Source: Octopus vulgaris
Lineage: Eukaryota
Assembly: GCA_951406725.2 (NCBI GenBank)
Contig: OX597827.1
Location: forward strand, 17,174,001-17,238,000
DNA length: 64,000 bases
Direction of reading: 5' to 3'
Shown: piece after piece, positions 13,619-63,583 of the stretch
How positions within the stretch are numbered: position 1 is the stretch's first letter
Layout: every line of letters begins with the position of its first letter
Program-made: the position numbers and the translations under genes
Notes under the pieces: generated by a model
What the model was told of the DNA's origin: nothing
The model's database searches: none
Seen by the model: only the letters and a program-made list of their open reading frames with translations

Positions 13619-14360
13619 AATTAACAATTGAGGATAAAATCTTTAAAAGAAATTATCAGTAGTCAGCGTGAAAAACCTCGTAAGAGAAAAAATCCGTAAA
13701 ATCTTCCTCTTTGAAAATATTCATTTATATTATATTGAGGGTACTACTATTCGTAGATACCAACACGCTAAGAGGGACCAATGCGGTCAAAACTACTATA
13801 ATAAACAAAATTTTACCGAATGCAAAACTTCAAAACACATCATTTTAAAAAAGAATTCAGTTACATATCACATGTGATTTCGCATTTAATGCAGAATATG
13901 CATTTCATGTTCGTCAGTGCAACAAACTCAAGAAATATAGGAGAAAACATAACATTACAAGCTCGATAGCCAACCGTAGAATTCGTCGTAGCATGTACGA
14001 ATGTTTATCTTTACATATCTATGAAAATGGCGGGCTTATTCGCAATGCATTTCGGAAACAATTTGTCTAGTCGGAATAAAAATTCAGTATTGAACTATTC
14101 CGGTGAAAAATATAAATTAACAATTGAGGATAAAATCTTTAAAAGAAATTATCAGTAGTCAGCGTGAAAAACCTCGTAAGAGAAAAAATCCGTAAAATCT
14201 TCCTCTTTGAAAATATTCATTTATATTATATTGAGGGTACTACTATTCGTAGATACCAACACGCTAAGAGGGACCAATGCGGTCAAAACTACTAAAATAA
14301 ACAAAATTTTACCGAATTGGTATCTACGTGTTGGTATCTACGAATAGTAGTACCCAATAT
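13619..14360 (-). mobile_element. Hammerhead mini-element with 496-bp period and inverted leader, in (TA)n
   Basis: 13621-13821 repeats at 14117-14317; 14318-14360 is inverted; homologous to the 48834-50205 element. Confidence 0.8.
13861..13922 (-). ncRNA. Type I hammerhead ribozyme motif
   Basis: TTGCA-CTGACGA-A-CAT..ATGCA/TGCAT..ATGC-GAAA-TCACATGTGA-TA-TGTAA. Confidence 0.8.
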
Positions 14361-14831
14361 AATATATATATATATATATATATATATATATATATATATA
14401 TATATATATATATATATATATTAAGATAAAAATGGATGCATGGCGTTCTATCATATAATAATATAAATAATATATAAATATATATATATATATATACATA
14501 CATATATGTACATACCTACATATATATGTATATATACATGCATATATGGGTACATATGTCCTGTACCCACATATGCCTATATATATACATATATATGTAG
14601 GTGTGTACATATATGTATGTATCTATGCATATGTTTATATATTATATATATGATATATATATATATATATATATCAATATCAATAATACATATGTATCTA
14701 TGCATATGTTTATATATTATATATATGATATATATATATATATATATATCAATATCAATAAGATTGTTTCTTGTCAGGAACAAAAAGATTAATAGGACTG
14801 CTATAGAAGTGCTCTCTTGAAAGAGACAAAA

Positions 14832-16180
14832 ATATCAAACTAAAGTTATTGAACAAACAAATGCAAGGTCATCCGCTTAGCATTTCATAATTCGAACATT
14901 TAATCATAGAATATACATATAAACATCCTGCTAGATGGACCATAATTCATCTGTACAAGCATACAAGCATATAATAATAATAATAATAATAAGGTGCGAG
15001 AAAAAAAAAATTTTCATCACAGTTTAGAGTTAATACTTTAGCGATTCAGAAAAATACATTTAAAAGAAAACAAAAAAAAAAACCTTACAATACCTAGAAA
15101 GTAAAAATATAATATAAAGTAATATATAAAAATATATAGGTATTTAAAAATATATAATATATATATATATATATATAGGAGCATATAAAAAATATATAAT
15201 ATATATCATGTAAATAAAATAAAAGTTCATCGTTTAGAAATCTTATGAAATTATTATTCAAGTAAGAGAAGCCTTATAGTTAAAAGGAAACCATATTTAC
15301 ATATCCCTATGGCCATTTCAGGGGTGTATTATGTTTAAAGCACTAGGGTGCATCCAGATAATACCTCCTTCGTCAGGGGAAAAAAATATATACACATAAA
15401 GATAGACATCATCGCGTACCAGGCCAGCACAATGCTTTCTTTTGGGCTATCCGAGCATGAATGCCTCAATAGGAAAGCAAACAACATTGTGCTGGCCTGG
15501 TACGCGATGATGTCTATCTTTATGTATATATATTTTTTCCCCTGACGAAGGAGGTATTATCTGGATGCACCCTAGTGCTTTAAACATAATACATCCCTGA
15601 AATGGCCATAGGGATAAGTAAATATGGTTTCCTTTTAACTATAAGGCTTCTCATACTTGAATAATAATTTCATAAGATTTCTAAACGATGAACTTTTATT
15701 TTATTTACATGATATATATTACATATTTTTTATATATATATATATATATATATATATATATATATATATATATATATATATATATTATATATTTTTATAT
15801 ACCTATATTTTTTTTATATATTACTTTATATTATATTTTTACTTTCTAGGTATTGTAAGGTTTTTTCGTTTTTTTTTAATGTATTTTTCTGAATCGCTAA
15901 AGTATTAACTCTAAACTGTGATGAAAAATGTTTTTTCCTCGCACCTTATTATTATTATTATTATTATTATTATTATTATTATTATCATATGCTTGTATGC
16001 TTGTACAGATGAATTATGTTCCATCTTGTGGGATGTTTATATTGATTGATTCTAGTTTCAGCTCACGAGCTGTGGCCATGCTGGGGCACCGCCATGTATA
16101 TTCTATGATTAAATTTTCGAATTATGAAATGCTGTGCGGATGACCTTGCATTTGTTTGTTCAATAACTTTAGTTTGATAT
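14832..16180. mobile_element. Large fold-back element with ~600-bp arms, one hammerhead per arm
   Basis: 14832-15434 is the reverse complement of 15485-16180, with a ~50-bp spacer. Confidence 0.85.
15539..15613 (+). ncRNA. Type I hammerhead ribozyme motif
   Basis: CCC-CTGACGA-AGGAGGTATTAT...ATAATACATCCCT-GAAA-TGGCCA-TA-GGG; mirror copy on - at 15305-15380. Confidence 0.8.
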
Positions 16181-16299
16181 ATATATATATATTACACAGT
16201 CCCAAATATATATGTATATACACACATATATATATATGAATATACATACGTACATATCTAGTTATCTATCTATCTAACTATCTATCTATATATGTATAT

Positions 16300-60658: not shown

Positions 60659-60920
60659 GTGGAGGCACATGGTCTAATGGTTAGAGCAGCGGTCGAGGGA
60701 TCGCGGTATCGAATCTCAGACCGGCCGACGTGTGTTTTTATGCGGATCCGGCAGAAGGTAATGGCGAACTTCTGCTGACTCTTTCGCTACAACTTTCTCT
60801 CACTCTTTCCTCCTGCATCTTGCAGCTCACCTGCGATGGACCGGCGTCCCGTCCAGGTGGGGAACCTATACGCCAAGGAAACCGGGAAACCGGCCCTTAT
60901 GAGCCAGACATGGCTCGAGG
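60659..60920 (+). mobile_element. SINE family C
   Basis: Homologous to the 3008 copy. Confidence 0.85.
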
Positions 60921-61029
60921 ATGTATACCAACGTGTTTATATCCTAGTGCCTACTGTTGCAGGGCAGTAACGCAATTGAATAATAGGCATGAGTAGAGAT
61001 AAAGCAGAAATTTACCCAGAATTTATAAG

Positions 61030-61370
61030 GCAAATAAGAAAATGTAGAAAATCATTCGATAAACATCAGCCTGGAAACATTAATTTGGACCTATTTATTA
61101 ATTAATTATAATCATATAAGTAATCAAAATAAATAAAAAATAAACAAGTAAATAAATAAAAAGATGAATAAATAAGTGAAAAAATATTTTTCACTCATTT
61201 ATTCTTATTCATGTATTTATATTTATTTATTTGCTTATTTATTTTGATTACTTATAAACACACACACATATATATATATATATTAATTAATTAATAAATA
61301 GATCCAAACGAATGTTTCCAGGCTGATGTTTGTCGATTGATTATCCTCTCCATTTCATTATTTGCATTAT
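61030..61370. repeat. Nested AT-rich inverted repeats
   Basis: 61030-61108 mirrors 61283-61367; internal hairpin at 61116-61255. Confidence 0.7.
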
Positions 61371-63583
61371 CTCTCTCTCCCTGTATGTATATATATATAT
61401 ATATATATAAGTAACAATGAAGGGTGAAATTAATTAATTTGGAACAATTATCAATTACACCAAGTAGTCTTCGGCATGTAAAAGCCTCATTCGAGGAAAA
61501 TTTAAGTAATACTAAGCAATTAAGGGTTTAGCAAGGAATTGCCTTACCACACACCGAATTTAGAAATAGCAGTCAAAGAGATTATAGCTATTTCTTCTAC
61601 TAAAAGGGAGATCACAGTAAAGGCACAGCATTTATATATATATATATATATATATATATATATATATATATATATATATATATATATGTATATATATATA
61701 TATGTATATATATATATATATATTAATATTTAGCAGATTTGACAGGGTGACTGAAAGTCCGAGTGTCTCTTCGTGCGTTGGCACTTATCAAACTAGTCAC
61801 ACGCCGAAGGCCTGTGGTTTTATATAGTTGTTCATATAATGGATTCATATATGCATGTGCGTTTGAAGCAGACACAAGCATACTTAAATATACAATATAT
61901 ACCCACTCGTAAGTAAAGGTGTGAGCGCTTCGAAACCTTGGTCATTTCACATTAAATAACAGCGGAACCATTCACATAACGATTGCTCACATAATGGTTC
62001 GCAATACTTCACAATAATAGACAGCAAAAATGCTATAGTCTCTTACGTGTGTTTGAACGGTTCGTTGCGCTAATTTCAACTTCAGCCATGTATATGGTTG
62101 CACTTTCGTTTTGTTTTGTAACTACCTATCAGCCATTATGAAACAGAGCTATGGCACGTACGTAGGCGGTAGGCTTGGTTTCATGCACAAGTTTGAAACT
62201 CTGTAGAAGTTTAATTGAGGATCGTATCGAACATGTGCATCATAAAAGTCTGAGCAAATTGGTGGCCATAGCCGCATCAAATAAGAACATTAAGTTCCGT
62301 TGGACTGCAACCGTCAGAGCTAATGATAATGGAGAATTAGTTGGACATGAAAACCAGGAGACGACGTTAGAGAAGGAAGGTGATTGCGTTGGTATGTAAA
62401 TTTTTTGATGCGAATGAACGAGTAAAGCTGGAATCAAAGTGATTAATGTATTATGGGTGGTAGGTCCTTGATAGATCTATAGCATTGACCACGTTGCTGA
62501 TACGAAGTTTACATATAGTTTTGAGACTGCACAGTCCGAATATAAGAATATATTGACTTCGTTTATTGTATAATTTACGATGACTCATTAGCGGCTTCAA
62601 CCAACCAATCAATCAAGCAAGCAAACTCTCGCTCTCTCACTCTCTTGCTCTTATACTCTGTATGTGTGTGTACTTGAGTTTTTGTGTGTGTAAACACGCA
62701 CACACAGATAGACTGACACACACACTCACTCACACACACACACACACACACACACACACACACACACACACACACACATGCAGACTTACGTATTGAATTA
62801 TATTCATCCTGTTAATTCTATGAGAAATACACAGACGCAGACACACGCACAAACACACACATAACTTCACACTTCCACACGCAAAGATATATATACATAT
62901 ACGAGTATGTTTTTGCGCTTCAGTATTTGTGTGTGCTTATACGCATGTGCGTGTATTTATGTTTATAGGTAAGTTTATAGATCTCAAGATTCAAATTAAA
63001 ACAGTCTTCATTTATAAGATCGATGCAAACATTATGAAGCACAAATTGCTACGATCACATTTTGTTATTAAATTTCATTAAACGAGGTGAAAAATATAAT
63101 TATCGAACGAAATTGACGAAATTACCATAAACTTTAATAGAATTTTAATCAAAAATATTAATTATTCATTTACCCTAAAAATAATGATTTGTTAGCAATA
63201 AAATTATTCAATTAAAGATAGTCGCAGTTAGAAATGTATATCTGTATAAAGGATAATATGCATTCATATATATATATGTGTGTGTCTGTGTGTGTATACA
63301 TACATGCATACATACATACATACATACATATATACATACATACATACACACATATATACATAAATCAGAAGCACATTTTAACATGGTTTTCTTCACTGTT
63401 GGTTAGATAATAATATGGATGTAAACACATATCTTTTATTACTACTGAATGCGAAAAAAAAAGGAGGGACTCTACTGTTGAATCATTCCACAGTGTTTCA
63501 CAGTGTTTCTTTCCTTATTGTTAGCATGCATCAGCTGCTTATGAAGCAGTCATAAATTAGGTTAGGCTATTAGTGAATCTAAA

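Follow-up and report, generated by a model that had tools for sequence, protein, structure and literature searches.

How the reverse transcriptase (RT) of a Penelope-like element (PLE) chooses its template is a largely open matter, and the available text of Frangieh 2024 (PMC11167929) deals with one lizard element, on which it locates a binding region and two internal start sites. According to that text, the purified Poseidon protein of Anolis cuts and extends both target strands, and begins cDNA synthesis within a stem-loop, at two neighbouring internal positions that share no homology with the target; it requires the RNA 3' of these positions, and the sequence between them is the 'tail' seen in a fraction of genomic copies. 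The accessible parts of Craig et al. 2021 (PMC8557442) describe a tail at one end, inverted 5'-truncated copies, pseudo-long-terminal-repeat (pLTR) arrangements and a preference for (TA)n in the Naiad, Neptune and Hydra groups, and list octopus families. A non-autonomous existence as passengers of PLEs has furthermore been proposed for retrozymes (Cervera & de la Pena 2020, PMC7229834; Li, Clavereau & Pollet 2026, preprint 10.64898/2026.07.22.740005; both as far as their available text goes). Here we describe a conserved 3' module of about 100 nucleotides (nt) carried by short non-coding insertions in (TA)n microsatellites of Octopus vulgaris, in a 64-kb stretch (the window: contig OX597827.1, positions 17,174,001 to 17,238,000) of a 2.8-Gb, 227-contig genome. 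The comparisons that follow are likely best explained by a cis role, either in recognition or in initiation; more specifically, we put at about 0.6 the probability that the module is an RNA signal for a trans-supplied Penelope-like RT/endonuclease to begin cDNA at a (TA)n nick.

The module and its copies in the window

The module begins with a TA-rich tract (TGTATTTTATATGAATAATATA), followed by a small hairpin (TAGTC-TATT-GACTA), a T-rich spacer of 12-17 nt, a 13-nt core (GCTAGGCCACTGG) and a terminal hairpin, whose first pairs join the last GG of the core to a downstream CC and whose loops measure 4-37 nt. A single C and an A/T-rich stub of 5-20 nt (CTGATATTATTAATTA, CTAAGATTTATTAATTA, CTTTGATAT and others) then lead into (TA)n. 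In an alignment of 43 copies, conservation peaks at the core and at the base of the stem after it, and the conserved block extends at least about 110 nt 5' of the core, making it larger than described in an earlier reading of the window from its letters alone (the original prediction).

Genome copy numbers and terminal positions were based on exact patterns and about 150 fetched loci, with the same letters reversed as the control for the core. The core has 3273 exact matches in the genome against none when reversed, the core extended by TAGC has 21 against none, and the upstream anchor TGTTTAAATGTACAC has 3588 against 36. The window itself is AT-rich (GC content 0.25-0.41 per 2 kb) and crowded with microsatellites (137 rows from Tandem Repeats Finder, TRF); with up to three mismatches the core has 9 matches there against 4.09 expected, a count reached by 2 of 100 shuffles. 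Seven of the nine are true copies in the described context, and those at 5324 and 52030 are chance. The original prediction placed the module always next to TA-rich sequence, which holds as a strong preference: of 41 genome copies picked by the core alone, 29 have the start of a (TA)4+ tract no more than 110 nt from the core, compared with a rate of 0.19 at random places of the same loci and 0.235 in the window. The other 12 copies have no (TA)4+ nearby; three of them are tandem junctions and two adjoin (ATT)n or (GATA)n.

A covariance model, R1, was trained on 37 copies, all from outside the window (effective sequence number 3.47), and the window was scanned with it unfiltered. Seven sites scored 36-77 bits, all with E<=5e-5, and six of them were on the original list. 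The modules in the window are as follows.

18825..18915, + strand: clade A 3' module; R1 45.6 bits, E 4e-7; core 18849-18861; terminal hairpin GGTAGCGGA/TTTGCTACC, present in the minimum-energy fold (z -1.89); (TA)n at 18919-18962
24860..24941, + strand: clade A 3' module with an exact core, missed by the original prediction; R1 77.4 bits; at a head-to-tail junction, the next unit beginning at about 24935
25336..25417, + strand: clade A 3' module, GGAA/TTCC stem variant, then (TA)n; R1 66.6 bits
44471..44539, - strand: clade A 3' module, stem GGTAGTAAT/ATTATTACC, from R1 (35.9 bits, E 4.9e-5) and folding
44859..44963, - strand: clade A 3' module with a long loop; R1 39.8 bits; fold z -3.28
47641..47713, + strand: clade A 3' module, GGTAA/TTACC stem, then (TA)n; R1 57.8 bits
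60366..60456, - strand: clade A 3' module with a 12-bp terminal stem; (TA)n at 60246-60360; R1 77.0 bits; fold z -3.58
13626..13692, - strand: diverged clade C module (CACGCTGACTACTGATAA...TTATCC); R1 22 bits, E 0.047 (marginal); GATAA/TTATC hairpin in the fold
14122-14188, - strand: clade C module identical to the preceding one; R1 22 bits, E 0.047
48953..50203, + strand: 2.6 head-to-tail copies of a 480-bp clade C unit at 100% identity with a (TA)n end (TRF period 480); modules at 49153-49232, 49633-49712 and 50113-50192, each R1 14.3 bits, E 2; fold z -2.91
61416..61501, - strand: short (TA)n-flanked element with a GGTG/CACC hairpin; R1 11.3 bits, E 8.7 (not significant); fold z -2.60

Six of the 'about nine' copies first counted are clearly one module (35.9-77.0 bits), the copy at 13619 is marginal, and homology of those at 50110 and 61410 is not shown by R1; a hairpin nevertheless folds at the equivalent place in both 50110(+) and 61410(-) despite their low scores. 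The count becomes seven clade A copies, five copies of a diverged clade and one unproven relative, the copies at 14122-14188(-), 49153-49232(+) and 49633-49712(+) having also been missed, being internal to tandems.

Seven of the 20 copies sampled by the core alone belong to a further clade, B, with the layout ...AATC-TTCG-GATT-TTTTAAAAATAT-GCTAGGCCACTGG-TTTT-AATTGAT-TAAT-ATCAATT-TCTACCCTTATTTAATT-(TA)n. Its upstream hairpin (AATC-TTCG-GATT) and inner terminal helix (AATTGAT/ATCAATT) differ in sequence from those of clade A, and the two clades have in common the exact 13-nt core, the spacing and the GG..CC closure; R1 scores clade B copies at E 3e-4 to 0.12. Clade C (13619, 50110) is marked by CACGCTRRCTAC, a hairpin closed by GATAA/TTATC and an upstream hairpin with a UACG-type loop.

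The carriers of the module are non-coding units of 420-480 bp without open reading frames (ORFs), with (TA)n tracts on both sides. They had been described as otherwise different, which is only partly the case, since clade A units also have a stretch upstream of the module and a short 5' segment in common; the bodies of clade A subfamilies are alignable only at the module and at this segment of 43-46 nt around CTGCGCNTGCGC. The same region appears as a second conserved block of about 45 nt (GCCGNC...CTGCGCNTGCGC) in otherwise unalignable units (window 24990-25030; sampled loci L008 and L001), and may function as either a 5' signal or an internal promoter. What is new here is the long structured tail conserved across clades; the carriers themselves are of a known kind.

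Folding and covariation of the module

Pairs were counted on the 43 clade A copies for a 9-bp terminal helix and the upstream hairpin. In this set 89.1% of cells pair, compared with 34-57% when the partners are slid, and the covariation value of 0.194 exceeds the shuffled mean of 0.149 and is reached by none of 500 shuffles. Four of the nine pairs of the terminal helix change on both sides; the counts are UA39/AU3 at position 3, GU20/GC18/AU4 at position 5, UA13/CG10/UG2 plus 18 C.A-type mismatches at position 6, AU28/GC8/GU3 at position 7 and AU30/UA2 at position 9. In 29 further hits from other loci, clade B included, the paired fraction of cells is 86%, both partners have changed in 11 pairs, and covariation is 0.246 against 0.122; the alignment of these hits was made by R1 and so leans toward the model. 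Single-sequence folds contain the terminal hairpin in most copies, and some copies fold the core onto itself instead (CUAG-GCCA-CUGG). An anchored-stem test that allowed G-U pairs and any partner position did not discriminate (mean 6.6 versus 5.2 shuffled).

The covariation support for the terminal hairpin is moderate, because the shuffles ignore relatedness and the effective sequence number of R1 is 3.47, and the signal is partly confounded by subfamily structure. The compensating stem changes of the original prediction stand for those four pairs of clade A; the GATAA/TTATC and GGTG/CACC stems come from elements of weak or unproven homology and are therefore parallel hairpins rather than strict covariation. 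The proposal that TAGAC pairs with the upstream GTCTA, giving an alternative fold or pseudoknot, gains no support: GUCUA and UAGRC are pairable in 92.6% of cells without covariation (values at least as high as observed came up in 407 and 271 of 500 shuffles), and the pairing has no counterpart in clade B.

Insertion architecture of the carrier units

The architecture of the carriers matches that described for Penelope-like insertions in the available text of PMC8557442. Units occur as head-to-tail partial tandems, the pseudo-LTR arrangement, at 48953-50203, at the junction near 24935 and in sampled loci L001, L006 and L021. They also occur as head-to-head inverted pairs whose 3' ends face outward: at the first 100 places of the anchor TGTTTAAATGTACAC, close pairs numbered 18 in the (-,+) orientation, none in the (+,-) orientation and three on the same strand. 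An inverted, 5'-truncated partner lies on the 5' side, as is characteristic of PLE insertions, and it usually comes without the module. Four such long/short pairs lie in the window (18778-18915, 24703-25417, 47510-47713 and 48836-50203), with the following inverted partners.

18778..18818, - strand: inverted partial body copy, short end without module, adjoining (TA)n; read from the sequence as the reverse complement of the GAGTCAGATGTCCTATTATGGTCATCTCTTATGT segment known from sampled loci L001 and L021
24703..24797, - strand: inverted partial copy (short end), 5' of two direct units; reverse complement of body of the 25230-25300 type
47510..47566, - strand: inverted partial copy (short end) adjoining (TA)n; forms a perfect palindrome with 47567-47624
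48836..48952, - strand: inverted partial copy of the 480-bp unit (short end), interrupted at a TA-rich site within the unit, where (TA)n takes over

The two kinds of end recur outside the window. As a rule an insertion has one long end, which carries the module, and one short end, which stops about 100 nt earlier, just past ATGTACAC within the unit's own TA-rich tract. At 31 anchor instances the sequence extends to the core in 12 (at +56 to +67), breaks off early in 16 and behaves otherwise in three; the 16 end in (TA)n or TG/TA repeats about 17-32 nt after the start of the anchor, inside that tract. Eight head-to-head pairs were read, comprising six of a long with a short end, one of a short with a variant long end, one of another end with a short end, and none of two long ends. 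The terminal extension is thus at one end only, as in PLE insertions, although its length of about 100 nt exceeds the published 30-40 bp, and the bias toward (TA)n (29 of 41 against about 0.2) is likewise a trait of PLE insertions.

The copy at 44859..44963(-) lies tail-to-tail, across (TA)5, with a perfect inverted copy of its last approximately 50 nt (44797-44850, + strand), the duplicated part being half of the terminal hairpin plus the stub; from its sequence, this inverted repeat looks like an insertion-time fold-back rather than two independent insertions. The 480-nt unit also occurs as a cycle or tandem in sequencing contigs from four runs of unrecorded kind (a 510-nt contig; joints back 480), compatible with RNA circles or with tandem DNA; no data set recorded as RNA was listed among those that contain it.

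Hammerhead-like motifs were sought with our own descriptor (stem I, CUGANGA, stem II, GAAA, stem III with a 0-8-nt loop, and a cleavage site H), which gave nine matches in 428 kb of loci and none in the reversed sequence. A slightly relaxed form gave six matches in the window, against none reversed and none in each of 20 shuffles, and four of the six belong to units that end in the module.

13860-13923, - strand: hammerhead-like motif 5' of the 13626-13692 module (descriptor)
44674-44759, - strand: hammerhead-like motif in the unit ending at 44471-44539 (descriptor)
49404-49461 and 49884-49941, + strand: hammerhead-like motifs in the 480-bp clade C unit (descriptor); predicted cleavage after GUGAUA, at 49454 and 49934
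15304-15380 (- strand) and 15538-15614 (+ strand): hammerhead-like motifs in a palindrome without the module (descriptor)

Stem III of these motifs is palindromic or has a 1-nt loop, which we take to be the Penelope type of hammerhead, and the cores are candidate ribozymes. The palindrome at 15200-15710 is near-perfect, with arms of about 250 bp, and lies between two (TA)n tracts; it consists of two head-to-head copies of another short element, neither with the GCTAGGCCACTGG module, so that not all (TA)n inserts bear the signature.

Elsewhere in the window, tRNA-like sequences of the short interspersed element (SINE) type with GGTTCGAATCC-like boxes stand beside (TA)n inserts at 13400-13500 and 60660-60720. 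A 50-bp tandem repeat (6.7 copies, 41383-41716) and long CAA/GAT/AGA triplet arrays (42071-42626) lie within a 325-codon open frame on the - strand.

Proposed role and comparison with known systems

Because the short and long ends bracket it, the module behaves as a Penelope-type 'tail' between two alternative RT start sites, here about 100 nt long, as judged by analogy. In the mechanism that we propose, the long and short ends would reflect alternative reverse-transcription start sites flanking the module, and the (TA)n 3' ends of the cut target would anneal to the UA-rich tracts beside it, fixing the junctions; placement of the enzyme would fall to the two hairpins together with the invariant core. 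Two cDNAs, one per strand of the cut (TA)n, would converge to give head-to-head pairs, and such convergence would account for both the 18-to-0 orientation bias and the pairing of long with short ends. A bolder version makes the module a self-contained handle: a telomerase-related PLE RT would dock on the two hairpins and GCUAGGCCACUGG and start at either flank from both cut (TA)n strands, its own element no longer sharing the module. This we hold tentatively, at well below even odds; if it is true, any module-bearing RNA would be written into TA microsatellites, and the module would be the first defined template-recognition element for the Penelope-like class, one that arose in parasites and was retained by them.

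A partner enzyme was sought among the PLEs of this genome, which is rich in families that pair an RT with a C-terminal GIY-YIG domain, in Hydra-like families and in Naiad (867 matches with up to two mismatches to a 24-nt primer from a published octopus Naiad, against none for the control). A Neptune-like element with RT and C-terminal GIY-YIG has a 781-amino-acid (aa) ORF that is intact in many copies (Pfam RVT_1 and GIY-YIG), and there are at least five further families with a C-terminal endonuclease (EN). Hydra-like elements, with 11,704 first-look candidates in a protein search of the genome, include a very abundant element of about 5.2 kb with an intact ORF of 955-960 aa (loci L138-L151, e.g. 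G000:C2:168269996-168275756). Its 955-aa protein has RT motifs such as YRDD without a Pfam match at E<=0.01, and the element resembles Hydra-1_Obim by eye against the published alignment. The 3' ends of this element are either short (...TAATTTTGTAG directly followed by (TA)n) or long, with an extension of more than 130 nt starting TATTAATTTAC-GGTAATATTATTACC; at locus L138, a 29-nt inverted copy of the 3' end is present at the 5' end. All PLE ends that were read stop in (TA)n.

Several side observations were made on these ends. The Hydra-like extension opens with a GGTAAT/ATTACC hairpin like a common terminal-stem variant of the module, and the Naiad terminus, ...CCATTTGATAT(AT)n, recalls the stub ...CCCTTTGATAT(TA)n that some variants of the module have; both likenesses are short, carry no statistics and serve as leads only. 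All readable Naiad copies (L114-L125) end in ...CCATTTG(AT)n, and their 3' regions contain GUC-GAAAC...CUGAUGA in permuted order, which fits the 'HHR_half_core' of published metadata. The element of loci L052-L055 (e.g. G000:C16:20834000-20843900) has a 3' region of about 1.1 kb with about eight repeats around TGATGACGTC, a palindrome like the cAMP response element (CRE), and a (TA)n end.

Several results weigh against an RNA signal read by a Penelope-like enzyme. The original prediction had inferred a cis signal for the mobilising RT/endonuclease and proposed to check whether autonomous PLEs end in the same motif; the Penelope-like architecture and tail position agree with such a signal, but the motif was absent from every autonomous family examined and from the published consensus set. 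Specifically, it was not found in 42 loci that hold several Neptune-like families (RT plus C-terminal GIY-YIG) or were picked by GIY-YIG hits, in the 3' regions of 15 Hydra-like loci or in 12 Naiad 3' ends, and GGCCACTGG, CTAGGCCAC and related strings are absent from the Naiad/Chlamys/Hydra PLE consensus file, as available, of PMC8557442. R1 gave no hit belonging to any PLE over 100 loci (its hits in L142, L144 and L148 fall in separate insertions nearby), and BLAST of the units against all PLE loci returned only low-complexity matches or neighbouring insertions. A 3' end in common, by which a PLE passenger might be recognised, was therefore not observed with any RT and GIY-YIG family examined. 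A screen by eye, without a Pfam scan, of upstream sequence (1.5 kb in 21 17-mer loci and 30 anchor loci, 3.2 kb in 20 13-mer-core loci) showed no long non-repetitive or PLE ORF inside the elements. Both junctions lie in TA-like sequence matching the target, unlike those of Poseidon, and microhomology alone could explain them. As for structure, all that RNAalifold returns for the 43 copies is the 5 bp at the foot of the terminal hairpin (-1.81 kcal/mol), copies folded singly have modest z-scores (-0.76 to -3.58, and +0.10 in one case), the upstream hairpin displays conservation only, without double changes, within clade A, and the neglect of relatedness in the shuffles and the alignment of the 29-hit set to the model count here as well. 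Finally, Rfam reports no hammerhead in the window at gathering thresholds or in five loci at E<=1, its only other matches being microsatellite look-alikes of microRNA models and no real family, and the canonical CUGANGA is kept in 5 of 12 units with the 3' half, many being mutated (e.g. TTGATGA).

Some of the same figures fit conservation by descent only, in which a few recent masters would have spread incidental AT-rich hairpins and only the TA-rich stub would prime. The low effective sequence number, the anchored-stem means, the shallow RNAalifold structure and the tracing of most double changes to few subfamilies all point that way. However, clades A and B differ nearly throughout and yet keep the 13-mer, a hairpin 15-20 nt upstream and a downstream hairpin closed by GG/CC; clade A bodies are unalignable where the module aligns; and a single stem position occurs in intermediate as well as compensated states (C-G, C.A, U-A). 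We consider descent alone unlikely.

The module might instead act mainly as DNA, as a GIY-YIG endonuclease site that draws insertions beside old copies. Such a role has a precedent in the tail of Drosophila virilis Penelope, which the EN requires to recognise and cleave Penelope DNA (cited in PMC11167929, available text); CCACTGG/GGCC is palindrome-like, and insertions do cluster, with at least 10 modules in 64 kb and tail-to-tail copies at 44797-44963. Most copies, however, adjoin plain (TA)n rather than another copy, and the stem covariation indicates a single-stranded fold. A DNA site, which would be compatible with an additional RNA role, is in our estimate distinctly improbable.

SINE-like elements moved by a stringent-type long interspersed element (LINE), with (TA)n as their own tail, would have a layout resembling the common 3' tail of eel UnaL2/UnaSINE1 (PMC1636434, in the parts available), and LINE fragments are present near some copies. 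This is very hard to reconcile with (TA)n on both sides, the 18-to-0 excess of head-to-head pairs, the partial tandems and the hammerhead-like cores. Furthermore, the window has no tRNA gene according to ARAGORN, which could miss degenerate tRNA-like heads, and no Rfam match, and in the screened loci the module is not directly preceded by a LINE ORF. Miniature inverted-repeat DNA transposons targeting TA, with the inverted repeats as their termini, would suit the TA-rich targets and internal inverted repeats but can scarcely be entertained, as the ends are not mutual inverted copies (one has about 100 extra nt), the inversion points differ from copy to copy and full single units (e.g. L008) are without terminal inverted repeats.

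An RNA signal for a Penelope-like enzyme, the reading that we prefer, has wider consequences. Thousands of natural passengers in at least two diverged clades keep the module at the tail position, which makes it a short, mutable candidate signal that comes with natural stem variants. Insertions of this kind both build and break up much of the TA-microsatellite landscape of the 2.8-Gb genome, which is relevant to repeat annotation and to the reading of microsatellite-rich cephalopod assemblies. At the level of titles and abstract openings, the literature on octopus retrozymes and hammerheads and on PLE hairpins, untranslated regions and target-primed reverse transcription yielded no published description of the module.

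Among known systems, the eel UnaL2 stringent-type LINE/SINE tail (PMC1636434, available parts) likewise has a conserved 3' stem-loop beside a short tandem repeat, common to differing elements, whereas in octopus (TA)n is the target site, insertion is Penelope-like and there is no LINE partner. The Naiad, Hydra and Neptune-type PLEs of octopus have the same host group and (TA)n target (PMC8557442, as available), and the Hydra-like family displays the same short-end and long-end behaviour as the units, but none has GCTAGGCCACTGG or an R1 hit. Animal non-LTR retrozymes are similarly non-coding and low in GC, a few hundred nt long and present in head-to-tail copies, and the hammerhead-like motifs of the octopus units recall their type-I hammerheads; the octopus units differ in being mostly single or partial, with an inverted partner in (TA)n and often degenerate hammerhead cores, and a conserved end module does not appear in the available retrozyme descriptions of PMC7229834 and 10.64898/2026.07.22.740005. 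Closest, together with the retrozymes, is the Penelope tail as described in the accessible text of PMC11167929 and PMC8557442, likewise an extension at one end, between two junction or start sites and linked to a stem-loop, in elements that likewise have pLTR tandems, inverted 5'-truncated partners and AT-rich or (TA)n targets. The octopus module rides on non-coding units, the autonomous families examined having no matching tail, and compared with the 30-40 bp of the Penelope tail it spans about 100 nt, with two hairpins and an invariant 13-nt core.

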